Positions 5,890 through 24,983 of a stretch of 64,000 nt of DNA are shown here, piece after piece; position 1 is the stretch's first letter, and each line of letters begins with the position of its first letter. Location: contig JBFRWI010000086.1 in NCBI GenBank assembly GCA_051439505.1, positions 32,001 through 96,000 on the forward strand. Reading direction: 5' to 3'. Under the pieces are notes generated by a model, which saw only the letters and a list, made by a program, of their open reading frames with translations, was not told where the DNA came from and searched no databases. This DNA comes from Hormoscilla sp. Lineage in GTDB: Bacteria; Cyanobacteriota; Cyanobacteriia; Cyanobacteriales; Desertifilaceae. A program made the translations under genes and the position numbers.

Positions 5890-6071
5890 GATTCCCCTTC
5901 CTGACTATGCTTGCCTTGACTATTGTGACAGACTTTCGTCAGTTTGGTTGAACTTACATCTTGCACCAATCCCGATCGCCCGCCCAATCATTTGCCAACC
6001 GGACTCCGGCGATCGCTCAAGCAAGGAACTAATATCTATACTCATTTTTGGGTGTTGTTTGCGAGTTAATT

Positions 6072-6253
6072 GTTCTTTCTATTATCCTACATCTGGGGCA
6101 GTTTGGGGAAAGGTCATCCCAAAAGTTATTATCAAATCCCAGGAAAATCATCCTCGGTATTTTATATTACATTGCTTAATGCTGCCATAGCCTACGGCAT
6201 ATCCTGCAAGTTAGCGTCTATCGGGTCTCATATCTACTGGTATGATACCTTCC
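6072..6253 (-). pseudogene. Decayed duplicate of the pilin 3' end plus its downstream intergenic segment (copy of about 7240-7430)
   Basis: Reads PIDANLQDMP*AMAALSNVI*NTEDDFPGI* against pilin PIEANLQDMTSVIEELGNVISNPEESCPGI; the TTCTTTCTATTATCCTACATCTGGGGCAGTTTG block is identical in both copies. Confidence 0.8.
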
Positions 6254-6262
6254 CAATTCGAC

Positions 6263-7198
6263 CTATTTACGATTGTTGCGCAGTATATTGATTAGAGCCC
6301 CGATCGCCATAATCAAGACACCATTAGTCGGCGAGAATTCAAAAGAGGCACCTGCCGTAGCATTATTAGTAGCTTCGGCAGTAGTAACGGCGACTTTTTT
6401 GAGGTCAGCATTAACACTCCCCCGGGTCGTGTTGTCCCCTAATGCCAACAAGTTCGGCGTCTCGTAGGGGTCGTAGGGCAATGTTAAATTCACGGCTCCT
6501 AAAGGAATACCAGCAGTATGGTCGAAAGCACTGTAGTCCCGTAGAGAACCGCTCAGAATGAGTGAATTATTTTGGAGAAGCTGGTAACTGTCCCCCTGGA
6601 TCTGGAGTTCGTAGCTGCTCAAATCAGTAGTCCCGATCGCAGTGCCCTCAGCGTGGGTAAAAAGACTGCCAGTCACGTCATCGTGCTGTGCCCAAATTTC
6701 ATTTTCCCAGAACCCCAGTTCAATACCCCGGAGGTCGCTGCTAATAGCAATGATACTAAAACCCGCCCGATCGTTGCCAACGTGGTTCTCCCTGTTAATT
6801 TTGAGGTCCAAACTGATGTTATAGCCACCATTGCGATCGAGAGTAGGGAAAGAGGCGTTAATCAAATTCGGCGTACAGGAACCAGGGAAAATCTCAATGC
6901 AGGACTCGTAGTTGCTATAGCCCCCGGCGATATCATTGGGGTCTGTTATCAAGGTATTAGTAACAGCAGTATTCAACTGAGTCCCGCCCGAGATCTGGGT
7001 TTGAGTAGCTTGAGGCAGATTGACCGTAATTGGGCTCACAGTAACAGATGCAGGAGCCGTTGTAAATTCCAGCCAGCCCTGACTGTCGGGAGTGCCAGAC
7101 AATGAGCCATCGTAGAGAGTAACAGATGCACCAGTTGCCCGGTTAGCTCCCAGAATCAATGTCAAGCCAAGTGTCATAGCAGTTATAGCAGTTTTCAT
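6263..7198 (-). CDS. Secreted surface protein (choice-of-anchor Y-like domain) with PFE-CTERM-like tail
   Basis: RBS GGAGGAG then signal peptide MKTAITAM...; DRAGFSIIAISSDLRGIELGFW and LGDNT motifs; C-terminus SFEFSPTNG, hydrophobic helix, RNNRK. Confidence 0.7.
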   Translation of the reverse strand: MKTAITAMTLGLTLILGANRATGASVTLYDGSLSGTPDSQGWLEFTTAPASVTVSPITVNLPQATQTQISGGTQLNTAVTNTLITDPNDIAGGYSNYESCIEIFPGSCTPNLINASFPTLDRNGGYNISLDLKINRENHVGNDRAGFSIIAISSDLRGIELGFWENEIWAQHDDVTGSLFTHAEGTAIGTTDLSSYELQIQGDSYQLLQNNSLILSGSLRDYSAFDHTAGIPLGAVNLTLPYDPYETPNLLALGDNTTRGSVNADLKKVAVTTAEATNNATAGASFEFSPTNGVLIMAIGALINILRNNRK

Positions 7199-7301
7199 TT
7201 CTTCTCCTCCCTGATGGGTGAATCTTGAGTCGAGGTTCGTTCTTTCTATTATCCTACATCTGGGGCAGTTTGCGGACTTTGGGGACAGGTCATCCCAAAA
7301 A

Positions 7302-7889
7302 TTATTCCACAATTCCAGGACAAGACTCCTCCGGATTTGATATGACATTGCCTAATTCTTCTATAACCGACGTCATATCCTGCAAGTTTGCTTCTATCGG
7401 TTCTGGTATACAGATCTGCATATTACCTTCTTTCAGATATACAACTCCTGCATAACTTCTCACACAGTCAATCTTAGACGCAGCTACGTGAATTGCCATT
7501 GGCTCGTCATCATCATCCATCGCTATGATAACATAAAGGTAATTTTTTGATTCCTTTGAAGAAACTTCTATATCACTAGACGAGGCAAAAGCTGCTAATG
7601 CAGCTACCTCACTGTCATATTCTTCCTCTACAGATTCGATCGCAAAGTTCAATTTGGCAAAATTTAGGCTAAAGTTTCCTTTCTCAGTGTAGTATGCTTG
7701 CTGCGATCGGCTTGAATTTCCAATGTTAATTGTTGCTTCAGCTTCTCTAGCCTTACAAACTGCTTTTTGGGAAGCTGGCAAGGCAATGCTTGACAAAATT
7801 CCGAGGATGACGATAACCACTAGCAATTCTACTAGCGTCATCCCCCGATCGCATCTTTTCTGCCACAATGTTCTGAGTAAATTATTCAT
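7302..7889 (-). CDS. Type IV pilin-like protein (prepilin cleavage/methylation motif)
   Basis: RG|MTLVELLVVIVILGILSSIALP with E5; KAREAEA...RSQQAYYTEKGNF is typical of cyanobacterial pilins. Confidence 0.88.
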   Translation of the reverse strand: MNNLLRTLWQKRCDRGMTLVELLVVIVILGILSSIALPASQKAVCKAREAEATINIGNSSRSQQAYYTEKGNFSLNFAKLNFAIESVEEEYDSEVAALAAFASSSDIEVSSKESKNYLYVIIAMDDDDEPMAIHVAASKIDCVRSYAGVVYLKEGNMQICIPEPIEANLQDMTSVIEELGNVISNPEESCPGIVE

Positions 7890-7938: not shown

Positions 7939-10900
7939 CTACATGTCATGATTATTCATACTCAGATAAAAGAGCAAATTGTCCAATGCTTCGGACATTT
8001 GGGTGGCGGCGGGCAGACTCGCTATTATCCCTTGTAACAACCATTTTGCAGTATTCAGTTGCTTTCGTTGTGCCACCTTTTGAGGGTTTGCTCCCACAGA
8101 TGCTAACATATTTACCTGCTCTAATGCTTGCTCTTTATCTTCTGCTGTTAATCCCGGTTCGGTCTCAATTGCTGCTTTTAATTGCTCTAATAGTTCCGGG
8201 AATTTAGGTTTCACTGTACCCCGTAATTCTTGCCATGTCTTGGTAAACTCCGCTGGATTTTGGCAAATCACTGGTAACCAAGTAGCGCAGGGAAATTCAT
8301 CCTCTAACCCTTGCAGCTTTTCCCGCGCTTCCCGCACTGCTACATATAAGGTTTTGCCGCTGGCATATGCTTGCAGTAAATTATTTAAAAATGCTTGGGC
8401 TACTGGGTTGGGCACCGGTTCCCGCATGACAATTATCTGCGGTATGTGCAAGTTCTCTAGCTGTCTTGCTAACCCTAATCCATCGCATGAGTTGAAGATC
8501 GCTAGCTGCAATCCTCGCCCGATCGCATATATTAAGGCTTTTTCTAATTCTTCCAGCTTGATGTCCCTGTCCCCCAGTTGAAAACGACCGCTGTTCCCAT
8601 CTGTTTTGCTGGTACTATGGCCCGAAAAACAGAGTATGTCCCAACCCCGATCGTCCCACAGACTGCTATCCAGTGAGGCGCGATCGGGCTTTACCAAAAA
8701 TACGGATTCGGCATCGGGGAGACTCTGTAGAAGTTCCCTGTCTTTTTCGACATCAATCCCTTCGTCATCACCCATGACGGCTAATATTCGGATCTTTTCT
8801 CTGTCAGGGACTGACTTTTTGATGCGGTTTCCCTCGGGCAGACTCAGGGCCACTTCCGCCGATCGGTATTCCTGGAAAAAATCCCACAGATGCCAGGGAA
8901 GGCGTCGCAGTTGGGAGTCTTCTGATTGTACGATGACTCGCACTCTATCCTCGGGATTAAATTGGGAGCGCAATTTCTTCTGAATGGGATAAAATGCCTC
9001 GGAGTTCAGCCAACTATCCAACTGCTTTTCCAACTCCTTGGCTAACTTTTTCATATCTCTCTTCACATCCGGCATGTCCCGATCGGACAGCTGGGATACT
9101 TGACCTGGCTTTTTCTTGATGCGGGACTTCAACCCTTGATTCTCATGTAACCGTCGCAGATGTTCGTGTTTCCCCTGCCATTCCTGATAGAGTCGGGGAA
9201 TTTCTGGTTGGGGCGGTAATTTGCCAGGGAAGTTCTTGGGCAGAGAATGACCATCCGACCAAATCTGCGCTTTGACAGCGATAAACCCTTGCGCACAATT
9301 CCCTGGCCCCAAATCGATGACTACTAATCTATCTGAGATAATTGGATTTTTGGGAAAGGGCATGGGGTGAGTTGCCACATACTCGAGGATGCGTTTTAAG
9401 CTAGCGTTATGCTCGCGAAATCGTTTAATCAGTGCTTCTTTACCCTCCAGTTTTAGCTTATATTTCTCCTCTAATGATTTTATACTCTGTTCGTATATTT
9501 GCATAAACTCGTGATGAATTCTGGCTTTGCTAGTCTCCGGCGGCACGGCGACTTTCACAACTATTACGCCCTCTCCTTTGTTTTCGATGCCCTGAATATA
9601 GAGTTCCGTACCTTCATTCTCTACTTGCAGCTGTTTGAAGGATGACATGAATGCTCTCCAGTCTATGCCATCCCGGAAGATCAAGTCAACGGTATTCAAA
9701 ACTTCTTGAAAGAGACTGGTAAAGTCTCCCGGGGCAAATTCGCCGCTGCTGGGACGGCGTTCCCTGTCGTCCGTGCCCGGTTTGGGATGTTCCAGCAGAT
9801 ACACATATCTCGACTCGACATCATCTAGCTGTGTGCTGCTGTCTATGTTCCAATTTTCTAGGCTAACTCCTGTCATTTGTGCCCAGGTGAAGTTCGCACT
9901 AATGACTTGCACTTCTGTCAGGTTTGCCCCGTCTAAACAGGCTGCATGGAGAGAGGCTTCTGTTAAGTCCGCTGTCCTCAAATTGGCATCCTTGAGATGC
10001 GCACTATTTAAGTTAGCGCCTCGGAGGTTCGCACCTTCATAGTTTTTGCCCTCACCATCTCCGCTGACCAGTAAATCCCGCACTTTTGGGTCTATTAAGA
10101 TGGTATCATCAACTCGGGCGTAGTTCAGCTCTCGGGCTTGCCACCAGAATGTGCGAGTGGTGTTCGCTATTTGGAAATTACTGCTCTTCAGGGTGGCGTT
10201 GCTGAAGTTGGCATCGGTTAAGTTGGCATCCCTAAAGCTGGTTCCCCCGATCGCGCCTAGGAAAATGCCAATTTGGCGAATAAGATTGTATTGGGGGTCT
10301 TCCGCCAGTACTTGCCGGGCTATTTTACTGCTCAAATACACGATCGTAGCTGCGATCGCTACAGCGCTAATAACTGCTAGTATTTGTAGCGACTGTGATA
10401 GTATTATTTGTCGCGGCGGCACTACCAAGACCTTAATATCTTGATGCTTTTGCGGGCAAAAAGATTCCAATAAATTTTGATTAGTGATGGCATAAACTAT
10501 GACAGCATAAATGCCTGCGCCTGCGAAGGCTAAACTGCTAACTATAGGTTCAGGAACAATGGTGGCTAAAGCTACTTTGCCGATCGAATACACGACAGCA
10601 ACTGCGATCGCTACAGCGCTAAGAACTGCTAGTATTTGTAGCAGTTCTAATATACCAGATTCCTTGATTTGTGGTGGAAAATATTTCGGGCAGAGATATC
10701 TGGCTCTGTTTTTGGTCGTGATGGCAGCAACGATGACAGCTAAAGTGCCTGCGCCTGCGATCGCCAAGTTGCTGACTCTGGGAGAGGTGACAATGGTGGC
10801 TAAAACTACGGCGAGGGCGAGGGCGATAATGGCGGCGGTAGTAGCAGCCACAGCTATGAAGAAACCAATTATTACTACGGCGATCGGTCTATCGGTTCCC

Positions 10901-11400
10901 TGGGTTGTAGCCTCGATAAAAACCGTCAGTTGAAACCCTCTAAACCAATCGGTCAATTTCGAGTTATCGTTGCCCAAAGCACTTAAAATTCCAATCACGG
11001 GGATGGCGATCGCCACGCTAGCAACGACTGTCATCAATGCTTTTTGCAGTCCTTGATGCAGAGTAATCTTTAAAATAGCGAGGCTGGTTAAGATGTTCGC
11101 CACACTGGCGAGAAAATAGTCTTCCTGCGAGGGGCTAGGAAGGATATATCTGATGGGAATATAGCCCTCGATCGCGGCTGCTGCGCCGGCAATGACTGAC
11201 AGAAGTGCTGCTAGGAGAAATATGGCTATTGCCCAACTCGGTTGCAGTCCCGCTTTGGCATAAGTGAAGTTGGCACCTTCTAGGTTGGCACCTGTAAAGT
11301 CGGCACTTCTAATGTCGCTGCGGGAAAAGTCCGCACCTTGTAGGTCTTCATTTTTGAAAGAACGTCCTTGATGAGAACGGCGATCTAGATTTAGAAACAT
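7939..11400 (-). CDS. Membrane protein: pentapeptide repeats, multi-TM region, pentapeptide repeats, coiled coil, CHAT (caspase-like) protease
   Basis: A(D/N)L/F repeats, many TM helices, ERRPSSGEF, RRLPWHLWDFF, catalytic FSGHS and FNSCDG, REPVP...WLPVICQNP. Confidence 0.88.
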   Translation of the reverse strand: MFLNLDRRSHQGRSFKNEDLQGADFSRSDIRSADFTGANLEGANFTYAKAGLQPSWAIAIFLLAALLSVIAGAAAAIEGYIPIRYILPSPSQEDYFLASVANILTSLAILKITLHQGLQKALMTVVASVAIAIPVIGILSALGNDNSKLTDWFRGFQLTVFIEATTQGTDRPIAVVIIGFFIAVAATTAAIIALALAVVLATIVTSPRVSNLAIAGAGTLAVIVAAITTKNRARYLCPKYFPPQIKESGILELLQILAVLSAVAIAVAVVYSIGKVALATIVPEPIVSSLAFAGAGIYAVIVYAITNQNLLESFCPQKHQDIKVLVVPPRQIILSQSLQILAVISAVAIAATIVYLSSKIARQVLAEDPQYNLIRQIGIFLGAIGGTSFRDANLTDANFSNATLKSSNFQIANTTRTFWWQARELNYARVDDTILIDPKVRDLLVSGDGEGKNYEGANLRGANLNSAHLKDANLRTADLTEASLHAACLDGANLTEVQVISANFTWAQMTGVSLENWNIDSSTQLDDVESRYVYLLEHPKPGTDDRERRPSSGEFAPGDFTSLFQEVLNTVDLIFRDGIDWRAFMSSFKQLQVENEGTELYIQGIENKGEGVIVVKVAVPPETSKARIHHEFMQIYEQSIKSLEEKYKLKLEGKEALIKRFREHNASLKRILEYVATHPMPFPKNPIISDRLVVIDLGPGNCAQGFIAVKAQIWSDGHSLPKNFPGKLPPQPEIPRLYQEWQGKHEHLRRLHENQGLKSRIKKKPGQVSQLSDRDMPDVKRDMKKLAKELEKQLDSWLNSEAFYPIQKKLRSQFNPEDRVRVIVQSEDSQLRRLPWHLWDFFQEYRSAEVALSLPEGNRIKKSVPDREKIRILAVMGDDEGIDVEKDRELLQSLPDAESVFLVKPDRASLDSSLWDDRGWDILCFSGHSTSKTDGNSGRFQLGDRDIKLEELEKALIYAIGRGLQLAIFNSCDGLGLARQLENLHIPQIIVMREPVPNPVAQAFLNNLLQAYASGKTLYVAVREAREKLQGLEDEFPCATWLPVICQNPAEFTKTWQELRGTVKPKFPELLEQLKAAIETEPGLTAEDKEQALEQVNMLASVGANPQKVAQRKQLNTAKWLLQGIIASLPAATQMSEALDNLLFYLSMNNHDM

Positions 11401-11468
11401 GGTTTTGGTGAATGTTGTTGTTACGTAGGGCGGGCGTCTCGCCTGCCCGGGAAGAGGACATAGGGCTG

Positions 11469-11680
11469 AATGGCACAGACTTAAGGGACAAAGTTATTAA
11501 TGTCATTGCGAGGGGGGTGGGAAAGCGAAAAATCATCATCTTACATTAGCATCCCCCCCGAAGCAATCTCCTGGGGAGCTGTTGGTGGGGAGATTGCTTC
11601 GGGGGGTCTGTTGGCGGAGTTCCCCAAAATCTCGGTTTGGGATCGCCCCCTCGCAATGACAGCTTAAGTCAGTGACCATT
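11469..11680. mobile_element. MITE-like nested palindrome
   Basis: Outer IR AATGGCACAGACTTAAG / CTTAAGTCAGTGACCATT; inner IRs TGTCATTGCGAGGGGG / CCCCCTCGCAATGACA and CCCCCCGAAGCAATCTCC / GGAGATTGCTTCGGGGGG; same core at 26597-26758. Confidence 0.75.
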
Positions 11681-11969
11681 ACTCGTACTCACGATCTACC
11701 TCATGTAGGGCTTTGTAAATCACCTCATCGCTAACCCCCCGACGCCTTAAACTATCTATCAACACCGATACTTTATCATTTTCCAATCGTTCCATATCTA
11801 CCCGCAAACCCTGACCAATATAAGCCCGCATTAATGGTTGATAACCAGAAAATCCCAGCACTAGCGCAACCTGTTTCAGGTCTGACACCACGTCCTCGGG
11901 CATGCGAATCGTTACCTCGGTCATGGGACGATTTTTATCCAATCTTTTTCGCAAAACTTCAGGTTTCAT
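11679..11969 (-). CDS. Ribbon-helix-helix (BrnA/CopG-like) antitoxin-type protein, no intact toxin partner
   Basis: RPMTEVTIRMPEDVVSDLK...GYQPLMRAYIGQGLR. Confidence 0.65.
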   Translation of the reverse strand: MKPEVLRKRLDKNRPMTEVTIRMPEDVVSDLKQVALVLGFSGYQPLMRAYIGQGLRVDMERLENDKVSVLIDSLRRRGVSDEVIYKALHEVDREYE

Positions 11970-12074
11970 GGTCTTACCGTTCCTTGCGCTTGGTTGGGCC
12001 GATCGCCCCATTACCGCTGGCGATATCGCCATACAGCACCGGTGATGACCGATCGGGGGGGGGACGCGGGTAGA

Positions 12075-12249
12075 CCAGAAACCGGGTTTCTGCGATGATT
12101 TTCGCATTACTACCGAGATCTTCAAAGAAACCCGGTTTCTCAACTCCCACCCGACGATCCCGTTTTGAAGACCAGAAACCGGGTTTCTGCGAGAATTTTC
12201 GCATCTACACCGAGATCTTGAAAGAAACCCGGTTTCTCAACTCCCACCA
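12075..12249. repeat. Two tandem copies of an AGAAACCGGGTTTCT...AGAAACCCGGTTTCT palindromic element
   Basis: About 75-bp units with inverted ends; related copies near 17890-17953 and 39700-39735. Confidence 0.8.
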
Positions 12250-12605
12250 GAATATAGATCCAACTCCTGAATCAATCATCCAACATTTTTAGTATATACC
12301 TCCAACGCCTGAATAGATCATTTAATTGCCTAAAAAAAATGTTAAATTGTATGAACACAAAAAAATCAGCGCATGACAAAATTACTCAATGCCATTGAGT
12401 AGTAAATTAAAATATTTAAAGCCAAGCATTTTGACTTTTGAGAATGTTTTAAAACGCTTATGGTGCGCGGATTTGCTGGCATTTATGATTGTTGAATTTC
12501 ATATTATTAAACTCCAGGTAACGAGTTGTATGCAACCGGTGAACGAGGGCTGCCCAACCGGTGGTGAAAAGGATGCACCGGTGGGCGGTGCCGGCGGTAC
12601 ACACC

Positions 12606-13532
12606 CTACAGGTGAAAGTCTTGAGTTACTTTCGCTTCTCCCAGGGTCACGGCAACGGTGAACTGTTCCCCCTCCTCCGCGCTGAATTCCAATTGAATAA
12701 AGTTGTCTGCTTCTCTGGAAAATGTTTCCAATACCTCCTCTCCTGATTCATCGATGACTATTAGTTTCAACCCCGATGGCAAGTAGATTTCATCTTTGGC
12801 AGGATGCACTTGCACCCTCATGTCTACTTCCATTTCGTCTGCGCCTGAAAGCAGGGAGACAACCAAGGCAACTGATTTCCCTTCTAGTTGCAGTCCTAAG
12901 TCAATCTCCCGACCCCGCGTGATTTCTAATGGCCTGTATCCCAGGGCAAAATTCATTTGTTCGCTGCTTAAAAGTTCTGACAATGTTTGCCAACTAGACT
13001 CGAACTGCTTATCGAACCATTGCCGCAAGTTGACTGGTTCTGCTTGGCGAATTTCACTCATGTACAGCAGCATTTCTTCGGGCGATCGCAGTTGAGTCAG
13101 AGGCACTTCCCGGGCGGGGGTTCTGACAAATCCCAAGACCGTCGCTTCTCGAAGAGATTGACTCAACCTGACAGCTACATAACCAACTCTATCCGACCAA
13201 ACCTCCGCAGGAATATGCATCACTTCGGCATTTGGCAAGACGGGGCGACATTCTAATTTGCCCAACTGCTTGACATCTAAATCTGCCACATCCAGGAATT
13301 TCAGCATCAGGGAGTTGCGACTGTCGCTACTTTCCCAATTGCTTTCCCATCCCATGCAGCGCAGGTAATATTCCACCGCGTAGACTGCTAAGCTATTCAG
13401 ATACACCTGTTTGCCTTTGCGCGGATGGGGTTGCTGGCGGCGACATTCTTGGGCAATTTCGTGGGCGCTAAAGGATAGGATAACTGTAAAAGTCAATGGT
13501 TCTGTTTCTGCTACTTTGCTCATCTTTAACAT
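12606..13532 (-). CDS. DUF1822 family protein (candidate anti-sigma factor)
   Basis: KQVYLNSLAVYAV, ADLDV..GKLECRPV, GYVAV.L...A.VLGF, VNLRQW, QVHP...YLPSGLKL, SREADNFIQLEF. Confidence 0.88.
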   Translation of the reverse strand: MLKMSKVAETEPLTFTVILSFSAHEIAQECRRQQPHPRKGKQVYLNSLAVYAVEYYLRCMGWESNWESSDSRNSLMLKFLDVADLDVKQLGKLECRPVLPNAEVMHIPAEVWSDRVGYVAVRLSQSLREATVLGFVRTPAREVPLTQLRSPEEMLLYMSEIRQAEPVNLRQWFDKQFESSWQTLSELLSSEQMNFALGYRPLEITRGREIDLGLQLEGKSVALVVSLLSGADEMEVDMRVQVHPAKDEIYLPSGLKLIVIDESGEEVLETFSREADNFIQLEFSAEEGEQFTVAVTLGEAKVTQDFHL

Positions 13533-13556
13533 ATCTGTTTGTTAGTCCTTAGTTAA

Positions 13557-14189
13557 TCAGTCCTGTAAATAATTATCGAAATAGGACTGGAATTTTCGCA
13601 AATTGCGCTTAAAAAAATTAGCAAGAGTTGAAACTGGGATTCCCATTGTCTGAGAAATACTCTCCCAGGTCTGGTCTTCAACGTATTTCGCCCAGGCGAT
13701 CGATTGAAAGGTGACGTCCGGACGCCCTCTGATATGTTCGGCCCGCAAAAGGTTTTCCGGGTCATCTGCTAGAAATTCTCGTACCAGTTCCGCGTCGGAG
13801 TCAACTGTTTCCGTTTGTTCCGAATCTAGGTCTATTTCCTCTAGGGATGGGATGGAAACGTTTCGTCTGTTCCGATTCTGATGTTCGCCGACAACATTTA
13901 AAAACTCATAACGCAGCATGTTGTTCACCCACGCCATGACTGGGTGTTCCGAATTGTATTCGTCAATAGTTTCGCAAATCTTCTGGAAGGTTCGCGAAAC
14001 TGCTTCATCATAAAGGTCTCGATAAACATTAGCTGGCCAATTCCCCCTTTGGGGATGACCGAGTTGGTTCGATCGCGTAATTTCATCTATTAACGAATTT
14101 AATGCTTGCTGTCGTTCCCTACTTTGCGCTCTCGTATTCTGAGCTTTTTGGGCGATCGCTTGCAGTCGGCGATCGAATTCATCTGTCAT
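13557..14189 (-). CDS. ECF-like sigma-70 family factor
   Basis: RBS AAGGAG. Region-2-like DLYDEAVSRTF..ICETIDEY...VMAWVN and region-4-like HTH TWESISQTMGIPVSTLANFF. Directly upstream of DUF1822. Confidence 0.8.
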   Translation of the reverse strand: MTDEFDRRLQAIAQKAQNTRAQSRERQQALNSLIDEITRSNQLGHPQRGNWPANVYRDLYDEAVSRTFQKICETIDEYNSEHPVMAWVNNMLRYEFLNVVGEHQNRNRRNVSIPSLEEIDLDSEQTETVDSDAELVREFLADDPENLLRAEHIRGRPDVTFQSIAWAKYVEDQTWESISQTMGIPVSTLANFFKRNLRKFQSYFDNYLQD

Positions 14190-14358
14190 TTGACTCTCCT
14201 TATTGCTATTAACTGTCACTTATCTCTTGGTCCGCTGACCCGCCGGTTTTCCCGCTGGTCCGCCGGTTTTCCCGCCGGTCCGGGGTGGCAACCACCGGCG
14301 GGCGATCGGGAAAGCTGCAATCCGACGATCGCCGGTGAATACCAGACCCAATCATTGA

Positions 14359-14410
14359 GCCTCTACTCTGTATTTGCCTGACGGGGGTAATTTTTTTCTC
14401 AAAATCATGG
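14359..14410 (-). promoter_or_regulatory. Putative autoregulatory ECF-type promoter of the sigma operon
   Basis: Minus strand reads ATGATTTTGAGAAAAAAA-N14-CAAAT-N8-GAGGC, with the same blocks and spacing as the three plus-strand copies. Confidence 0.6.
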
Positions 14411-14414
14411 AATT

Positions 14415-14432
14415 GTTACAAAACTTTACATT
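14415..14432. promoter_or_regulatory. HLR1 (RpaB-binding) direct repeat
   Basis: GTTACAAA-AC-TTTACATT is a perfect match to (G/T)TTACA(T/A)(T/A)-N2-(G/T)TTACA(T/A)(T/A). Confidence 0.65.
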
Positions 14433-14455
14433 TCGGGAGCGTCCAAAAAAATTCC

Positions 14456-14933
14456 TGTGATTTGCGAAAAAAAGTGGGCTGTACTTCCAAATGTTAATAG
14501 GAGGCAGGGACGAGGGGCGCCGGTCGGTGCCGGTGTAACGATGGCGTTCGTAGTGAGGACTTTAGTCCTCTCCAGGGCTAAAACCCTGACCGAGAACCGG
14601 TGAAACGCCAGTCCTAGGAGCCGGTGGAGGGCAGTTCCAGAAATTTTCTGTGATTTGCGAAAAAAACTGGGCTGTAAATCCAAATGTTAATAGGAGGCAG
14701 GGACGAGGGGCGCTGGTCGGTGCCAGTGTAACGCTGGCGTTCGTAGTGAGGACTTTAGTCCTCTCCAGGGCTCAAACCCTGACCGAGAACTGGTGCTACC
14801 TGTCCTCGGAGCCAGGGCCGGGCAGTTCGGTGAAAATTTTCACCAGATTTGCGAAAAAAACTGGGCTGTAAATCCAAGTCTTAATAGGAGGCAGGGACGA
14901 GGGGCGCTGGTCGGTGCCGGTGTAACGATGGCG
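14456..14933 (+). repeat. About 193-bp tandem repeat, 2.5 copies: promoter-like motif plus structured segment
   Basis: GATTTGCGAAAAAAA begins at 14459, 14652 and 14846; the third copy is truncated at a HIP1 site and runs into the first PEP-CTERM leader. Confidence 0.92.
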
Positions 14934-14983
14934 ATCGCTCGTTCAAGTTCACGTAATTTATATTCCAAGGAGGAAATTGTCCT

Positions 14984-15862
14984 ATGAACGCAATTAATAA
15001 ATTCTCAATGGCTACGCTTTCGTCAGCAATTGTCCTTTCAGGAACAGCCGCATCATCTGTGCAAGCAGCAACCTTATCTCCGGAGCCACAGCCGATCGAT
15101 TTAAGCACTTGGAAACAGGAACGTTTGCCAACGAATCGCAATTGGATGCGGGATAATGGCAATTGGGAAGTGAGTCCTGACGGAAAATCAGTGCTGCAAA
15201 CAATCAATGGAAAGCCAACTTTCTTTGTCAGTCCCGACGACTTTATCAACACGACCATCAACGGGAAAATTAAGGTCGAAACCCATATAGATGACGATTT
15301 GATCGGATTTGTGTTTGGTTATCAATCACCAGCAGTTAATCAATTCGATTTGATGCTGTTTGATTGGAAACAAACGGAACAAACTGTAGATAACTTAGGA
15401 AAAGCTCACGAAGGTTTCAGTTTAGCTAAAGTCGATGAAACGCTTAATAAATATAGTCCTTTTTGGAAACGGAAAAACGACACTGGTTTCAATGTGCTTG
15501 CATCTGACTATGGCAGTCGCAAGGGATGGAAAGATGAGACTGAACATGACTTTACTCTGCTTTATCAAAGCGATCGCGTCAAGATTGACATTGATGGAAA
15601 GACCATCTTTGATATTAGCGCAGATGAAGTAGGTGGAGAGTTTCAGGCCGGTCGCTTCGGTTTTTATAACTTTTCTCAAGGGGATGTTCTTTATTCGGGG
15701 TTTACCCAGAATGACATTCCACCCACCCCATCCACCCCATCCACCCCACCCAAAACTGTACCCGAACCATCTTCTGGATTGGGTTTATTGGCTTTTGGTG
15801 CAGTCGGTGCCGGTTCCCTGCTGAAGCGCAAGTTGCAAAAGAAAGCTTCTCTTAGCGCGTGA
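14984..15862 (+). CDS. PEP-CTERM surface protein with a thrombospondin C-terminal-like (L-lectin fold) domain
   Basis: Signal peptide; DDDLIGFVFGYQS, DWKQ and GRFGFYNFSQ motifs; VPEPSS, TM helix, basic tail. Confidence 0.8.
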   Translation: MNAINKFSMATLSSAIVLSGTAASSVQAATLSPEPQPIDLSTWKQERLPTNRNWMRDNGNWEVSPDGKSVLQTINGKPTFFVSPDDFINTTINGKIKVETHIDDDLIGFVFGYQSPAVNQFDLMLFDWKQTEQTVDNLGKAHEGFSLAKVDETLNKYSPFWKRKNDTGFNVLASDYGSRKGWKDETEHDFTLLYQSDRVKIDIDGKTIFDISADEVGGEFQAGRFGFYNFSQGDVLYSGFTQNDIPPTPSTPSTPPKTVPEPSSGLGLLAFGAVGAGSLLKRKLQKKASLSA

Positions 15863-15953
15863 CATCCCCCCGTCCTACGAACATATCTCAAGGAGAAACA
15901 AACAAGGAAAAACAAACATTGCCAAACTGTTCACCTTTTTGGAGGAAAAATCA

Positions 15954-16709
15954 ATGACTAAGTTAAGATGTAATTCTGCTGCAATCAAACATAGCCTGAC
16001 TGGAACGCTGCTGACACTCGGTCTGTTAATGACTGAAACCAATCAAGCAATTGCTGCCACTATCACTACAACCCTTACAGCCGACAACTACTACGGTCTC
16101 TATTATGGTAATGCTGACGGTAGTGATCTGACCTTTGTTGGTCGAAATGGCAAGGGGACTTTTCATGTTCCAGACAAGAATCCGCCTGTCCCCCTCTCTC
16201 CTTGTTCTGGTCTTCAGTGGGCTTGCCCTGAAGCCTGGGAATTCAACATGGACCCCGGCGATTACATATATGTCCTAGCCTGGGACTATGGCGGTTTGGG
16301 ATGGTGGCTTGGTGAGTTCCAAACACCAGATGGTTTGCTTCTGTCAAATACTAGCGATTGGGAATACACAACTGCTGGTCCCCACTCCGGTATTTCCGGT
16401 GACCTTCCCTCCCTGACAGATGTTAAGACCCAAATAGCTAGCGCCACTTGGTCTACTCCACAATTCTTGGTTTCAAATAATCCTTCTTCTAAGGGTACGA
16501 TTTCACAAGACATCTCTTTGGACGCTGATTATCTATGGAGCAATGGTCCCAACCATAGCGATTTTCTAATTTTCAGAACGAAAAAACCTGTTGTCTCCGA
16601 GACAGTCCCCGAACCGAGTTCTCTGCTGGGCTTACTTGCCTTTGGTGCTGTCGGTACGGGTTCGCTGCTGAAGCGCAAGTTGCAAAAGAAAGCTTCTCTT
16701 AGCGCCTGA
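15954..16709 (+). CDS. PEP-CTERM surface protein
   Basis: RBS GGAGG, signal peptide, LTADNYYGLYYG domain, VPEPSS...KRKLQKKASLSA. Confidence 0.85.
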   Translation: MTKLRCNSAAIKHSLTGTLLTLGLLMTETNQAIAATITTTLTADNYYGLYYGNADGSDLTFVGRNGKGTFHVPDKNPPVPLSPCSGLQWACPEAWEFNMDPGDYIYVLAWDYGGLGWWLGEFQTPDGLLLSNTSDWEYTTAGPHSGISGDLPSLTDVKTQIASATWSTPQFLVSNNPSSKGTISQDISLDADYLWSNGPNHSDFLIFRTKKPVVSETVPEPSSLLGLLAFGAVGTGSLLKRKLQKKASLSA

Positions 16710-16820
16710 CGTTCCCCCCGGACTACGAACCGCTGCCCGATCGCCCTCTTGTTCCGTGCGATCGGGCCCCTGGGCCTCCCCAAGTTCACGAAATTGAAAT
16801 CTCAAGGAGAAACGAATCCT

Positions 16821-17741
16821 ATGAATACGATCTCTAAATTATCAATGGCTGCGATCGCGACGGCAGCAGTCGTTCTGGGAACAGGAAAAACTGCACGGGC
16901 AGCTTCTCTTTCTCAGGAAATAGACGTACTCTGGTACGGTCAGCGGGGAATCTACAATGCAAAAATGTCTGAAATAGCAGAGAAAGCGAGCAGCTTCGAT
17001 CCTGCGGACGATGGCAGTCTGGACTGGAATCTCACTATCTGGAATCCCAGCGACCCAGCTCCCAACTTTTCCGATTACGATGTCTTCGTGATTGGGAACG
17101 CTTTTCCTCAAGCACGATACTTTGGGTTTGACGCTTCCGGGATCTTGAACAACAAAGATGCCATCTCAGCAGCGCGGGGCAATCGCACTTTTCTGAGCGG
17201 TCAAGATGCAGACTTACACTACATACTTAACGTTGGTCCACGTCCCGATGGTCCGCTTGGCTTTTTGGTGAATGCCGTTAACTGGGCTGCAAGTGGCACG
17301 GGGATGGGTATTGTCTCCCTTCCTGATGTTTACGATCAGTGGTGGCTCGATGAGAATTCCTTCTTGAAGGATGAATTGGAGGGATATGTATCCTATATAT
17401 ATGACGAGAGGGTTATTATCCCAACAGCAACTTCTGACTTTCCTGTTAATGAAGGGTTGACGACAGCAGGTCTGAGTAATTGGAAGCTTTCTGCTCACGC
17501 TGGCTTTAACAAAGATATCCCAGGCTACATATCAATCAATGATGCAGGATCGGCATGGAATTCTGATAATGTTATAACGATCGTCACTGGAAGCGAGGCT
17601 GATGGCTGCACGAATAATTGCAAAGACAACGTGAAAGTTCCCGAACCATCTTCGGTGTTGGGTTTATTCGCCTTTGGTGCAGTCGGTGCGGGTTCCCTGC
17701 TGAAGCGCCAGCTGCAAAAGAAAGCTTCTCTTAGCGCCTGA
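16821..17741 (+). CDS. PEP-CTERM surface protein
   Basis: RBS AAGGAG, signal peptide MNTISKLSMA, SGQDADLH...NAVNWAA domain, VPEPSS...KRQLQKKASLSA. Confidence 0.85.
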   Translation: MNTISKLSMAAIATAAVVLGTGKTARAASLSQEIDVLWYGQRGIYNAKMSEIAEKASSFDPADDGSLDWNLTIWNPSDPAPNFSDYDVFVIGNAFPQARYFGFDASGILNNKDAISAARGNRTFLSGQDADLHYILNVGPRPDGPLGFLVNAVNWAASGTGMGIVSLPDVYDQWWLDENSFLKDELEGYVSYIYDERVIIPTATSDFPVNEGLTTAGLSNWKLSAHAGFNKDIPGYISINDAGSAWNSDNVITIVTGSEADGCTNNCKDNVKVPEPSSVLGLFAFGAVGAGSLLKRQLQKKASLSA

Positions 17742-18993: not shown

Positions 18994-19136
18994 GACAAAT
19001 TCCTCAATTTACTATATTTCCGATATTTCTGTGATATGATATTTTGATAAGCAGTGGAGTAACCGATTGTACTAAGCAGCCCCATTTTTGACATCGCTGG
19101 GGTTAAAATAAGTAAAATAGTAGAATAACCATACCT

Positions 19137-21111: not shown

Positions 21112-21786
21112 ATGCTGGATAGCTTAAGACTAGACGAAGCAGTAGAATTTGCCGAAAACCCAGAACCTCGTTGTCCCTGCGTTCTCCTCCTGGATACCTC
21201 TGGCTCCATGCAGGGACCGGCTCTTGATGCCTTAAATCAAGGACTGCAAACTTTTAGAGCTGACTTGATTAAAGATTCCCTCGCGGCCCGCCGGGTGGAA
21301 GTGGCGATCGTCACCTTTAATAACGAGATTAGAATTGAGCAAGATTTTGTTACTGCTGACCAGTTTGAACCCCCAATTCTGACAGCCCAAGGCCAGACTT
21401 TCATGGGCAGCGCCATTCACAAAGCCCTGGACATGATCCAAGCCCGCAAAGCCGAATATCGGGCCAATGGCATTGCTTACTATCGCCCCTGGATATTTAT
21501 GATTACCGATGGATCGCCCCAGGGAGAAGGGGAAGATGTGGTCGGTAAGGCCGCCCAGCGCATTAGAGATGAAGAAGTTCAGAAACACGTGGCCTTCTTT
21601 GCCGTGGGGGTGGAAAATGCGGACATGGAACGTCTGGCCGAAATCGTGACCCGCACGCCAGTGAAGCTCAAAGGACTAAATTTTGTGGAGATGTTCCTCT
21701 GGCTTTCCGCTAGTATGTCAGCAGTGTCTCATTCTAAGCTAGACGATCAGGTGGCCTTGCCGCCGCCCGGTTGGGGAACTGTTTGA
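21112..21786 (+). CDS. terY: vWA-domain TerY-like protein
   Basis: PRCPCVLLLDTSGSM (MIDAS), YYRPWIFMITDG, FLWLSASM. Confidence 0.88.
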   Translation: MLDSLRLDEAVEFAENPEPRCPCVLLLDTSGSMQGPALDALNQGLQTFRADLIKDSLAARRVEVAIVTFNNEIRIEQDFVTADQFEPPILTAQGQTFMGSAIHKALDMIQARKAEYRANGIAYYRPWIFMITDGSPQGEGEDVVGKAAQRIRDEEVQKHVAFFAVGVENADMERLAEIVTRTPVKLKGLNFVEMFLWLSASMSAVSHSKLDDQVALPPPGWGTV

Positions 21787-22595
21787 TGAGTAAAAGTGAA
21801 GCGAAAAATTTACAGGCCATAGATTACTGGCGGGTGGTGCCAGCATCAGTGCAGGGCACGGGCCATGAAAAGCGGGGACAGCCTTGTCAAGATGCCTATG
21901 ATTGGGCTAGATTGCCAAAAGGAATCCTGGTGGCAGCGGTGGCTGATGGTGCGGGTTCGGCGGCACTCTCAGAGGTGGGATCTGCGATAGCGACTCAAAC
22001 TGCTGTAGCTACCCTGGGTAACAATACTGCAACCTTACAATTGCAAAAGGACGATCGGGCTTGGCAGTCGCTCTTGAGTGAGGCCGCTTCTGCCGCCCAA
22101 CAGGCGATCGCGGCAGAAGCGGCAGCGCGGGATGTAGAACTGCGGGACTTAGCGACCACTTTAATTATCGTAGTAGCCACGCCAGAATTGGTTGCTGCGG
22201 CCCAGGTGGGTGACGGGGCGGCGGTGGTGCGGGATAATGAAGGCAATCTGAGTGCGCTCACTACCCCAGAAACTGGTGAATATGCCAATGAAACTGTATT
22301 CTTGCTCTCACCCGAAGTGGTAGAAGCGGCCCAAGTTAAAATATGGCGGGGGGAAGTATCTCATCTAGCGATCTTCTCCGATGGACTACAGCGACTGGCC
22401 TTGAAACTTCCCGAAGGAACGCCCCACCCACCATTTTTCTCGCCTCTGTTCCGGTTTGTAGCAGAGGCAACAGATGAAGAGTCAGCAAAGGAGCAATTGA
22501 TGGAATTCTTGCGTCACCCCCGGATTACAGAACGCACGGATGATGATTTAACAATCTTGTTAGCAACTCTCAATCCACTGATGGCTGATAGCTAA
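21786..22595 (+). CDS. PP2C-like phosphatase of a TerY-P triad
   Basis: SVQGTGH...PCQD, VADGAGS, QVGDG, GEYANET, SDGL, TDDD; TGATG overlap with terY. Confidence 0.88.
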   Translation: MSKSEAKNLQAIDYWRVVPASVQGTGHEKRGQPCQDAYDWARLPKGILVAAVADGAGSAALSEVGSAIATQTAVATLGNNTATLQLQKDDRAWQSLLSEAASAAQQAIAAEAAARDVELRDLATTLIIVVATPELVAAAQVGDGAAVVRDNEGNLSALTTPETGEYANETVFLLSPEVVEAAQVKIWRGEVSHLAIFSDGLQRLALKLPEGTPHPPFFSPLFRFVAEATDEESAKEQLMEFLRHPRITERTDDDLTILLATLNPLMADS

Positions 22596-22694
22596 AGGAA
22601 GAAGAGATAACTGTAGGGTGGGCACCGCCCACCACAAAGGAATGGGTGTAAGTACAATAACAATTAACAATTAACAATTAGAAAAAAGAAAGCG

Positions 22695-24983
22695 ATGGGG
22701 CTACAACGGCAATCTAATCGACAATTAATTACTCTAGATAAGGGGTCAGAACTGGGGGCAGGCGGTGAAGCGCGGGTATTCGCTGTCCCGGGAGAACCCA
22801 GTTTAGTAGCAAAGGTTTATCGCCAGCCAAAACCGATGCATGGCCACAAATTGGCGGCGATGCTGGCAAACCCACCGGATAATCCGACGGCATCACTCGG
22901 ACATATGTCTTTCGCTTGGCCTGTTGACTTGCTGTTAACTACAGGGACAAATAAAGTGGCGGGTTTTCTGATGCCGCGAGTGAGGAATATGCGCCCGTTG
23001 ATTGAGTTTTATAACCCGAAAAGTCGCCGCGAGAACTGTCCGTTGTTCAATTATCTTTATCTCCATCGCACGGCCCGCAATTTGGCAGGGGCTGTTAGCG
23101 CCCTACATGCTAGAGGCTATTGTATAGGTGATGTGAATGAGTCGAATATTCTCCTGACAGAGACGGCCCTCTGCACTTTCGTGGATATGGATTCTTTGCA
23201 GGTACCCGATCGCCAGACGGGGGCAATTTACCGCTGTCCGGTAGGGAAGCCAGAATTTACACCACCAGAGTTGCAGGGTAAGTCTTTTGCTGATTTCGAC
23301 AGAAGGCCAGAACAGGATCTGTTTGGGTTGGCGGTGCTGATTTTTCAGCTGTTAATGGAAGGTACTCATCCTTTTGCTGGTGTTTACAGACTGCCGGGAG
23401 AACCGCCCCCGATCGAGAAGCGCATTGCCGCTAATCACTTTCCTTATGGCAGTCGGAAGGTGCCCTTCAATCCGATGCCAGCAGCACCGCCGATAGAGTT
23501 ACTGCATCCGACATTGCGACAACTATTTATGCGCTGCTTTGAAGACGGACATTCTCTCCCTAGCGTTCGCCCCAATGCTAAGACTTGGCAGGTAGCACTC
23601 AAGGAAGCGGAAGATAGTTTGGTAACCTGCGCTAAAAATGAGCAGCATCGCTATGGCAATCATCTACGCAGCTGCCCTTGGTGCGAAAGGACTCGAATTT
23701 TGAAAGGACGAGACCCTTTTCCTTCAGTGGCGGCGGTGCAAAGCGGGCAGCATCTGCAACCGCTAAAACCGAAAAAAATCCCGATCGTGCCAGCGCCATT
23801 ACAGCATTTACCTGCCTATCCCCGGTTGCAGACGCCTGTTGCCTATGGACAGAGTTCCTATAAACTACCGCAACCAGCACCAATATATACTCCCACCCAA
23901 CTGAGTAGACCCAGAAGGATGGAGGTAAACTTGCCATCGGTTAACCCTTTGGTTGCAGGTTTGTTTATCCTCGCATTGGCAGGTGCAGGAGTTTGGTATG
24001 GCAGAAATGGCGGTCCTCCCGTGCATTTAATAGAACCTTTGCTAAAATCGATGCCAGCAGCAAAGGACTCTCCCAGTCCATCTAGTAATTTCAAGATTAA
24101 GGTGCTCTACGGGATTCAGTACCAAGCGGCAGCAGTTCAGGCGATCGCCTTCAGCAGAGATGGTAAGATTTTAGTTAGCGATAAAGACGATGGTGCTATC
24201 TTAATGTGGGGGCTGGAGGGGATGCCAGAAATTAAGCTAATTAATACTTTACAGGGAAAATCTGCGGTCAGCGCGATCGCCATTAGCAGAGATGGTCAGA
24301 TATTAGCGAGTGCTAGTCGCAATGATGACAAAATTAACCTGTGGAAGATGGATACGGGAAAATTCCTAGGCGCGATCGCAGCTAACGAAGGTATAGTGTC
24401 TCTAGCGATCGCTCCCGAACGCCAAATTATCGTAACGGGTAGCCGAGACACAACTTTTAAACTCTGGAATCTTGCTAATGGCACTCGCAAGCTAACTTTT
24501 AAGTGGAATTCTGGGTGGGTAAATGCTGTGGGTATTAGTCCAGATTTACAAACTTTGGTCGCTGGCACGGAATCGGGTACTATTCATCTAGTTGACCTGA
24601 ATACCCTGAAGGAAAAACCATCTCTCAAAAATGGTTCTATGTCAGTTGAATCTGTTGCTTTTACTCCCGATGGCAAAACCCTGGTTAGCAGTCACGGTCG
24701 CGAGATTAATCTCTGGAATATGGCGACGGGACAACGTAAAAGCACTATGACTGGACATATTGGGGAAATTAAGGCGATCGCCATCAGTCCCGATGGTAAG
24801 ATTCTCGCCAGTGGCAGTGCGGATAAGAGTATCAAAATTTGGGAACTGCATACTGGCCAGCTGCTGGAGACTCTCAATAATCATGAAAGGGAAGTAAGGG
24901 CGATCGCATTCAGTCCCGATGGAAAAATACTTGCTAGTAGCAGCGCAGATGGCATGATTAGGCTTTGGCAAATATCAAAATGA
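22695..24983 (+). CDS. TerY-P Ser/Thr kinase with Zn ribbon, TM helix and C-terminal WD40 propeller
   Basis: GAGGEA, AKVY, GDVNESN, DMDS, GKPEFTPPE, EGTHPF, C..N..H...CPWC, then a hydrophobic helix and WD40 repeats. Confidence 0.88.
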   Translation: MGLQRQSNRQLITLDKGSELGAGGEARVFAVPGEPSLVAKVYRQPKPMHGHKLAAMLANPPDNPTASLGHMSFAWPVDLLLTTGTNKVAGFLMPRVRNMRPLIEFYNPKSRRENCPLFNYLYLHRTARNLAGAVSALHARGYCIGDVNESNILLTETALCTFVDMDSLQVPDRQTGAIYRCPVGKPEFTPPELQGKSFADFDRRPEQDLFGLAVLIFQLLMEGTHPFAGVYRLPGEPPPIEKRIAANHFPYGSRKVPFNPMPAAPPIELLHPTLRQLFMRCFEDGHSLPSVRPNAKTWQVALKEAEDSLVTCAKNEQHRYGNHLRSCPWCERTRILKGRDPFPSVAAVQSGQHLQPLKPKKIPIVPAPLQHLPAYPRLQTPVAYGQSSYKLPQPAPIYTPTQLSRPRRMEVNLPSVNPLVAGLFILALAGAGVWYGRNGGPPVHLIEPLLKSMPAAKDSPSPSSNFKIKVLYGIQYQAAAVQAIAFSRDGKILVSDKDDGAILMWGLEGMPEIKLINTLQGKSAVSAIAISRDGQILASASRNDDKINLWKMDTGKFLGAIAANEGIVSLAIAPERQIIVTGSRDTTFKLWNLANGTRKLTFKWNSGWVNAVGISPDLQTLVAGTESGTIHLVDLNTLKEKPSLKNGSMSVESVAFTPDGKTLVSSHGREINLWNMATGQRKSTMTGHIGEIKAIAISPDGKILASGSADKSIKIWELHTGQLLETLNNHEREVRAIAFSPDGKILASSSADGMIRLWQISK

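Follow-up and report, generated by a model that had tools for sequence, protein, structure and literature searches.

How could a caspase-like protease in a cyanobacterial membrane decide which exported proteins the cell makes? The question is raised by a locus in a 64,000-nucleotide (nt) stretch of Hormoscilla sp. (contig JBFRWI010000086.1, positions 32,001 to 96,000; the window, numbered here from its first letter), where genes for a sigma-like protein, a DUF1822 protein and a membrane CHAT protease lie on one strand and three genes for PEP-CTERM proteins are transcribed divergently. A first-pass annotation of this DNA had proposed that a membrane signal activates the protease, which cleaves DUF1822 and frees the sigma factor to amplify itself and to switch on the exported proteins. 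We recovered all of its genes at their places and strands, and its overall interpretation is partly supported: for a full three-part switch of protease, anti-sigma factor and extracytoplasmic function (ECF) sigma factor we estimate a probability of roughly 55%. Gene content, catalytic dyad, gene order and motif positions come from the sequence; two folds and one interface come from models. The genes concerned are the following.

13557-14189, minus strand: sigma-like open reading frame (ORF) of 210 amino acids (aa); an alternative upstream GTG at 14219 is possible
12606-13523, minus strand: DUF1822 gene, 305 aa (PF08852, E 2.7e-65)
7939-11400, minus strand: membrane CHAT (caspase-like) protease gene, 1153 aa (Pfam, hydropathy)
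14984-15862, plus strand: PEP-CTERM protein with a thrombospondin C-terminal (TSP_C) domain (profile match)
15954-16709, plus strand: PEP-CTERM protein, passenger without known family, tail DNA in common with its neighbours
16821-17741, plus strand: PEP-CTERM protein, passenger without known family (profile match)

The three PEP-CTERM genes score 19.3, 19.7 and 18.3 bits with TIGR02595 (cut-off 16) and have the DNA of their C-terminal tail in common. Their products carry the PEP motif, transmembrane helix and basic tail of this class, and the source genome encodes cyanoexosortases A and B.

The sigma factor

Is the first of these genes a sigma factor? The ORF matches TIGR02937 with E 1.8e-5 and 24.4 bits, under the cut-off of 42.9. 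Its model, with a predicted local distance difference test (pLDDT) score of 80, has an ECF sigma2 plus sigma4 fold without region 3. The model aligns with region 2 of Mycobacterium tuberculosis SigC (VIA Z 10.5, root-mean-square deviation (rmsd) 1.9 over 86 residues), residues 121-210 match region-4 structures in a fold search, and a profile of the family matches SigK and SigE with E 0.0015-0.003. The product is thus modelled as an ECF-fold sigma factor and is a predicted transcription initiator. Of 41 genomes sampled from the order, 34 contain relatives, often in several copies. Searches with the single sequence gave no related locus among genome and metagenome contigs and no useful match in the PDB; with an alignment, the contig search gave five loci. 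Foldseek returned no E below 0.001 for either the sigma or the DUF1822 model. An identity with HetZ was rejected: NF037963 finds three other loci only, and the source genome's own HetZ, encoded elsewhere and above the cut-off, has no significant similarity to this protein (BLASTP E 0.18).

The domain of this sigma family also occurs at the C-terminus of a 1012-aa HTH-NACHT-HEAT protein (C157:11915-14953), possibly a one-component version. Another locus (L146, 2999-4771) has three tandem sigma-like domains in a 590-aa protein ahead of DUF1822.

DUF1822 as a predicted anti-sigma factor

What does DUF1822 do beside a sigma factor? Its model (pLDDT 91.8) comprises two domains and no TPRs, and we rejected a TPR label because of the model's secondary structure. 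Residues ~10-160 form a PD-(D/E)XK-fold domain (matched range 34-163), similar to I-Ssp6803I (2ost; Z 9.7, rmsd 2.7 over 112 residues), Hje (1ob8; Z 8.7) and 1gef (Z 7.5); these Z scores are middling and were computed on a predicted model. Residues ~200-305 are modelled as an immunoglobulin (Ig)-like beta-sandwich. Sequence searches of the PDB gave no solved structural relative.

The complex of sigma factor and DUF1822, whose prediction the first-pass annotation had suggested as a check, reached an interaction prediction score from aligned errors (ipSAE) of 0.85, against 0.00 for the best of three controls. This mark is reached by 116 of 157 solved complexes and by 2 of 215 mismatched pairs, a calibration only roughly valid for our own alignments. 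Contacts agreed to at least 79% between runs, and the partners had a pLDDT of at least 82. The predicted interface uses only residues 10-156 of DUF1822 and covers both region 2 and region 4 of the sigma factor. By this model, the N domain is predicted to clamp the sigma factor as an anti-sigma factor would.

A nuclease fold suggests a different reading, in which the protease sets DUF1822 free as an active nuclease against invaders and the sigma-like protein is its inhibitor. Asp81 (34/36 DUF1822 sequences) and Glu91 (35/36) are conserved, as a nuclease would require, but could be structural. The usual catalytic Lys is replaced by Arg (Arg93, 29/36), and the first-helix Glu position, by range alignment, holds Val or Ile; the reference residues are those we take to be catalytic in this fold, mapped by alignment ranges. 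With Arg in place of this Lys, the domain is probably disarmed. Some CHAT proteins of the family carry STAND NTPases, and Kaur et al. (PMC8195603) class such systems as conflict systems (for this paper and most others cited here, our statements refer to parts of the text). The genes behind the promoter motif described below encode exported proteins, not defence proteins, which together with the replaced residues makes this counter-invader role very improbable.

At the end of the linker, before the Ig-like domain, lies a conserved motif in which 32 of 36 sequences have Arg and 3 have Lys. Arg197 (codon 12933-12935), far more conserved than the flanking residues, is the candidate cut site. Alternatively, the CHAT protein could process itself or another protein, with uncut DUF1822 tethering the sigma factor to the membrane protease and releasing it on a conformational change. 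Such an autopeptidase/adaptor scheme is close to the proposal in section 9 of PMC8195603; it would fit the position of the predicted cut outside the sigma interface, and also the C domain, which accompanies CHAT genes even without a sigma partner, in some proteins without the linker Arg motif. The conservation of the linker Arg argues against it, as does its retention in a paralog at a second locus (C175, below) with another N domain and another sigma factor; moreover, in the parts of the papers considered, all three characterised analogues cut the anti-sigma factor. We regard the scheme as unlikely.

The CHAT protease

The protease begins with pentapeptide repeats, followed by nine hydrophobic segments (57-356), further pentapeptide repeats, an alpha-beta region (~530-680), an EACC2-type region (~690-800) and the CHAT domain (800-1033). 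The catalytic dyad is intact as annotated, with His928 in FSGHS and Cys972 in NSCD, and it is intact in 31/31 CHAT domains of the family, four of them from the source genome. The region before CHAT at ~690-800 is conserved across the family; its EACC2 label was assigned by position and by an architecture row in supplement 3 of PMC8195603. The protein has no extracellular sensor domain. Profile matches to TcdB_N and to type III secretion system effectors were below cut-off or generic to pentapeptides and were ignored. The alpha-beta region had no Pfam match, and ESM Atlas gave none for residues 525-690; a region of this kind is also seen in pentapeptide proteins without CHAT (C3).

A promoter-like motif in front of both arms

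Which genes might the sigma factor transcribe? As the first-pass annotation had noted, one motif, TTTG(A/C)GAAAAAAA-N14-CAA(A/G)T, lies in front of both arms. It occurs four times in the 6.47 Mb genome and in none of three shuffled genomes; all four copies lie within 14359-14891, one before the sigma gene and one per tandem unit before the PEP-CTERM genes. Beyond that annotation, we found that the plus-strand site is tandemly triplicated and that the region holds a perfect HLR1 repeat.

14359-14403, minus strand: promoter-like site before the sigma gene, with boxes 14403-14391, 14376-14372 and 14365-14362
14441-14937, plus strand: three tandem units of ~193 nt, the third truncated, with one site each at 14461, 14654 and 14848
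14415-14432, no strand: perfect HLR1 direct repeat (RpaB-type, putative), centred ~60 nt upstream of the inferred sigma start

Both full units also contain a 25-nt element (14546-14570 and 14739-14763). Allowing up to two mismatches, this element is matched 86 times in the genome, frequently as short tandem runs.

The window pattern was written from its own four sites, and therefore independent support has to come from a motif learned from relatives only. De novo motif discovery in the upstream regions of 45 relative sigma genes, reduced to 39 by dropping six near-duplicates, yielded TTTGC(A/G)TAAAA-N14-C(C/A/T)GAGA-N5-ATAGAGG before 26 of the 39. Its scores at these 26 sites range from 19.8 to 35.3, with a shuffle maximum of 18.2 (n=195), and its spacing would fit a -35 box, a -10 box and a start site. 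The family matrix scores the four window sites at 16.2-17.8 (shuffle 95th percentile 11.9, maximum 18.2); two of the three plus-strand units have the exact N14/N5 spacing.

Across 351 genomes, the exact family pattern gave 52 sites in 25 genomes, and a reversed control gave none. Thirteen sites precede a sigma gene, six of these in genomes outside training. Among the other 39, nine lie before PEP-CTERM genes and two before possible ones; the remainder precede genes for DUF4114-type (10), CAP-RTX (4), DUF4347 (2), TPS (1), trypsin (1) and small signal-peptide proteins (1), or other or no clear genes (9, one of them an unlinked CHAT-CHASE2 gene in G010). Thus, 30/39 non-sigma sites precede PEP-CTERM or other exported-type genes, and outside the over-represented genus the proportion is 14/18. 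In these counts, five targets were assigned by eye as orthologs, and of the nine PEP-CTERM targets two lie behind a 64-aa ORF and three fall just under profile cut-offs. In two genomes of another family (G016 and G050), the motif likewise stands before both arms and the PEP-CTERM genes are divergent. These positions lend computational support to the self-promoter and the exported targets that had been proposed.

The 64-aa ORF between motif and PEP-CTERM genes, conserved and without known family, is seen at L092 1590-1784 (G016) and L121 5892-6083 (G050).

Sequence comparison with a close relative is available through contigs of run X1, an RNA library used here as contigs, which shows a related locus and not its transcription. 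These contigs carry the same locus at roughly 88-95% identity. In the intergenic region, one of 60 motif positions differs, in a way the pattern allows, compared with 31 of 235 others (p 0.0045), and the boxes of the sigma-gene site are unchanged. The contigs join 14674 to 17675; the relative's cassette region is therefore a different and shorter one that ends in the same tail. The missing cover over the cassettes was used only through this joint. Cassettes vary and the promoter boxes are kept.

The HLR1 repeat is one of 22 perfect HLR1 sites in the source genome. With at most two mismatches, HLR1 lies within 45 nt upstream of 21/47 family sites, compared with 0.3% of shuffles. HLR1 centred at -66 to -45 from a mapped start has been linked to activation by RpaB (PMC6525291, also the source of the motif definition); the window repeat, at ~-60 from an inferred start, falls inside this range. 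Could the motif then be read by RpaB with a different sigma factor, this sigma gene being one member of the regulon? The fixed distances of HLR1 at the 21 sites would suit such a reading, and the tie between motif and sigma factor is a predicted one. The motif, however, covaries with the sigma factor: the divergent window sigma goes with a private variant found at its own locus only, its closest relatives share a middle box of their own, and C175, with an unrelated ECF factor, has a different repeated unit. Self-promoters are also usual for ECF sigma factors (PMC10028731). We therefore give control by RpaB with another sigma factor little credence.

Conservation and modularity

Are the three genes associated elsewhere? 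A survey of neighbourhoods, also suggested at first pass, covered 20 kb around the best-scoring 40 of 62 sigma matches outside the source genome, passing over a broken match and two whose contigs were very short. DUF1822 follows the sigma gene in 38/40 of these loci, and a CHAT gene follows DUF1822 in 27/40. Judged from these neighbourhoods, a predicted switch of this type is widespread in the cyanobacterial order.

A profile of the DUF1822 C domain gave 57 matches in 20 other genomes, from which 37 unseen regions were fetched and 35 annotated, containing 36 proteins. The N domain of the window is present in 14 of these proteins, all encoded behind a sigma gene of this family. The other 22 lack it and never have such a sigma gene ahead of them, and 16 of these 22 are followed by a CHAT gene. 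In the source genome, an EACC2-type CHAT gene comes after 6/7 full C-domain genes. By gene order, the Ig-like C domain is the part that travels with CHAT.

By eye, many of the 22 resemble a distant DUF1822 subfamily behind another sigma-like family. Such a second subfamily (L142-L145, L147, L149, L151, L152, L157, L158 and L162) lies after other sigma-like genes and before EACC2-type CHAT genes. The distant subfamily suggests several sigma/anti-sigma pairs on one protease platform.

A second locus, C175:43974-52767 (L076), repeats the layout of the window locus with different parts. Its PEP-CTERM (TSP_C) gene is 62% identical to the first cassette of the window, and its membrane CHAT protein is 50% identical with the same architecture. 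The ECF sigma factor is unrelated to that of the window, and a thrice-repeated, promoter-like intergenic unit of ~75 nt is unlike the window units in sequence. The DUF1822-C protein combines a different N domain, for which a 0.76 PemK/MazF lead in ESM Atlas was the only one, with the same Arg motif and the same C domain; an Rpn-like insertion precedes the CHAT gene. At C15, an N-only DUF1822 lies behind a sigma-domain gene; this is not a clean negative, because a TPR-CHAT-type gene lies 1.3 kb upstream.

Weighing the switch

Several observations speak against a three-part switch. The first concern the link between DUF1822 and the protease, for which two further features are needed.

12575-12591, minus strand: terminator-like hairpin directly 3' of DUF1822 (sequence)
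11419-12168, no strand: insertion between the DUF1822 and CHAT genes, with an 18-bp hairpin, an ORF and short repeats

The hairpin and 1.2 kb separate the DUF1822 and CHAT genes, 11 of the 38 sigma-DUF1822 pairs have no adjoining CHAT gene, and five further EACC2-type CHAT genes of the source genome could act instead. Two C-domain proteins of the same genome (C62 and C67) have no clear linker motif, and the residues of the predicted sigma-DUF1822 interface are no more conserved than others (0.48 vs 0.51; 0.47 vs 0.46). On the promoter side, the middle box of the window sites departs from the family consensus, and their scores are no higher than those at the upper end of the shuffles. At scores of 19 or more, the family matrix finds one site in the source genome, compared with 6-7 in shuffles. 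The seven other sigma sites of the exact pattern are circular, lying in genomes used in training, and a single genus contributes 26 of the 52 sites. Exact sites are found in 0/7 genomes without a sigma match and also in none of 23/34 genomes with one; this co-occurrence is uninformative, because most sigma-bearing genomes also lack a site. A divergent adjacent PEP-CTERM gene was seen in only 2/40 relative loci. Finally, outside the locus, none of 22 other PEP-CTERM regex matches of the source genome (25 in all, 2 doubtful) reaches a score of 13. Because the window variant scores low and no other PEP-CTERM gene carries a site, we rejected a genome-wide regulon for the source genome, and the regulon predicted from sequence is the locus itself.

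How far do the gap and the spare proteases argue for a looser arrangement, with the sigma-DUF1822 pair and promoter as described but control by a paralogous CHAT protein or without proteolysis? The hairpin, the gap with its insertion, the unusual N-terminal fusion of this protease, the further CHAT genes and the unaccompanied pairs would all fit. The hairpin itself counts as weak evidence, because terminator-like hairpins in the region (20) are little above shuffles (13.9 +/- 3.7); because it trails DUF1822, the CHAT gene may have its own promoter. The insertion, whose minus-strand ORF at 11679-11969 encodes a CopG-antitoxin-like protein of 96 aa (PF12441, E 0.042), is not part of the system: X1 contigs skip all 750 nt of it (joint 11418 to 12169) and keep the same gene order. 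That order, the related protease of the same architecture behind the DUF1822-C protein of C175, and the motif before the unlinked CHAT-CHASE2 gene in G010 count against a loosely attached protease, which we consider improbable.

Proposed mechanism and meaning

In the three-part switch as we propose it, the N domain of DUF1822 would, by the model, hold the ECF-fold sigma factor inactive. The membrane CHAT protease would dock on the Ig-like C domain and cut the linker after Arg197. Because this cut would fall clear of the sigma interface, as it does in CalpT and Csx30, a second step would be needed, in which further degradation of the N fragment frees the sigma factor. The freed factor would then act at the shared motif to drive its own gene as well as the three divergent PEP-CTERM genes, with three tandem promoter copies presumably raising output towards the cassettes and RpaB possibly providing a further input through HLR1. 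As the protease lacks an extracellular sensor domain, the likeliest trigger would be a membrane change or oligomerisation through the pentapeptide part. What the switch turns on is likely a set of exported proteins.

If this is true, it would assign a substrate, a cut site and an output to a common class of cyanobacterial caspase-like proteins, and a function to DUF1822; through the promoter motif, the regulon is open to direct tests. In Nostoc punctiforme, PEP-CTERM export is required for motility and biofilm, and five hormogonium PEP-CTERM genes need SigJ but lack its box, according to the portion of PMC12188702 considered here. A switch of the window type is a candidate answer to this puzzle. 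More tentatively still, and with rather more doubt than confidence, DUF1822 might represent a large, so far unrecognised family of modular anti-sigma factors, in which a swappable N domain (disarmed PD-(D/E)XK in the window, perhaps MazF-like on C175) would keep its matching ECF sigma factor silent, and a constant Arg linker and Ig domain would connect it to caspase-like CHAT receptors whose sensor parts vary. These would form a CRISPR-independent, RpaB-gated class of caspase-type signalling in filamentous cyanobacteria, in control of their exported and PEP-CTERM surface proteins, and might supply the direct regulation still lacking for those PEP-CTERM genes whose SigJ dependence is only indirect.

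Other features of the window

Downstream of the CHAT gene lie two genes that had been counted as part of the switch.

7302-7886, minus strand: type IV pilin-like gene, set 53 nt downstream of the CHAT gene
6263-7198, minus strand: choice-of-anchor Y protein with a weak PFE-CTERM-like tail (NF050052, E 3e-54; NF050011 below cut-off)

This part of the earlier proposal did not hold. Both genes lie beyond the hairpin and the insertion, have no motif upstream and, by regex, are absent from 40/40 relative loci; the pilin gene adjoins the CHAT gene on one X1 contig. Nothing ties either gene to the sigma factor. Two similar stretches, 6070-6260 and 7225-7420, flank the PFE-CTERM-like gene and resemble a duplicated 3' end of the pilin region. 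Elsewhere in the window, genes for a vWA protein, a PP2C-like phosphatase and a kinase-WD40 protein are consecutive at 21112-24983, by eye a TerY-P-type triad, and a tRNA-like sequence lies near 19000. A sigma-70 promoter scan was at chance (17 vs 15.5).

Comparison with known systems

The configuration had been thought uncharacterised at first pass. It is already in print as a computational description of a few sentences, in section 9 of Kaur et al. 2021 (PMC8195603), where ECF sigma and DUF1822 genes are listed beside a caspase gene, as here, where the DUF1822 and CHAT genes are parted by an insertion. That paper also lists the architecture Pentapeptide+TM+Pentapeptide+EACC2+CASPASE for a Cyanothece protein and proposes a transcriptional output via the sigma factor. 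Unlike our reading, it calls DUF1822 a TPR protein and proposes activation of an autopeptidase; its account is computational only and names neither an anti-sigma role nor a cut site, a promoter or targets, and PEP-CTERM is unmentioned in the main text and supplement 3. The sigma family is common in the order, yet this is the one paper we found to name the neighbourhood, and it tests no mechanism. DUF1822 is likewise absent from the main text and the supplement considered of the ECF classification PMC7826278. With subscription papers and bioRxiv supplements outside the scope of the search, no paper turned up that assigns DUF1822 an anti-sigma role or describes this promoter or these targets. 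On models and sequence, the new elements would be a DUF1822 without TPRs, its PD-(D/E)XK anti-sigma domain, Arg linker and Ig domain, and the family motif with its targets. The locus is real, ordinary as a gene neighbourhood and uncharacterised as a mechanism; it belongs to the systems of Kaur et al. and to none of the Calp, HetF or CASP systems.

The first-pass annotation had named the Csx29-Csx30-CASP-sigma and HetF-PatU3 systems as analogues, and their logic stands. In Anabaena, the membrane CHAT protease HetF cuts the anti-sigma factor PatU3 after Arg117 (PMC9457339), and HetZ, an ECF-type sigma factor co-transcribed with its inhibitor, activates its own operon (PMC13342950). Unlike the window sigma, HetZ has three insertions and a TCCGGA -35 box, and hetF is unlinked (PMC13342950). 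An identity of DUF1822 with PatU found no support, as DUF1822 profiles miss the gene behind hetZ, itself called PatU by position only. In the type III-E system (PMC10028731), the CHAT protease Csx29 likewise acts on a substrate with an N-terminal sigma-binding domain, cuts it outside the interface, and the sigma motifs lie in the system's own locus. Its activation by Cas7-11 target RNA and its defence-gene targets differ; the window protease lacks TPRs, and no Cas7-11 or Csx30/Csx31-like genes were found among the ORFs of the cluster.

A closer analogue, left out at first pass, is CalpL-CalpT-CalpS (bioRxiv 10.1101/2024.05.08.593097, from the part of the preprint considered). CalpT was not retrieved in fold or sequence searches, and CalpT/DUF2080 and TPR proteins are not among the listed fold matches of DUF1822, which does not exclude kinship with CalpT. 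CalpL is a Lon-SAVED protease activated by cyclic tetra-adenylate (cA4) in a CRISPR locus, whereas the window has a pentapeptide-transmembrane-CHAT protein without SAVED; CalpT joins a MazF-like N domain to a DUF2080 C domain and is cut at an Ala-rich site that exposes a degron, whereas the window has a PD-(D/E)XK domain and an Arg linker. [quoted passage not shown] By analogy, CalpL-CalpT-CalpS is the closest counterpart of the window layout, and C175 would be the closest natural analogue of CalpS-CalpT with a CHAT protease. If the switch proposed here is true, the design of protease, two-domain anti-sigma factor and ECF sigma factor known from CRISPR loci would also serve ordinary signalling.

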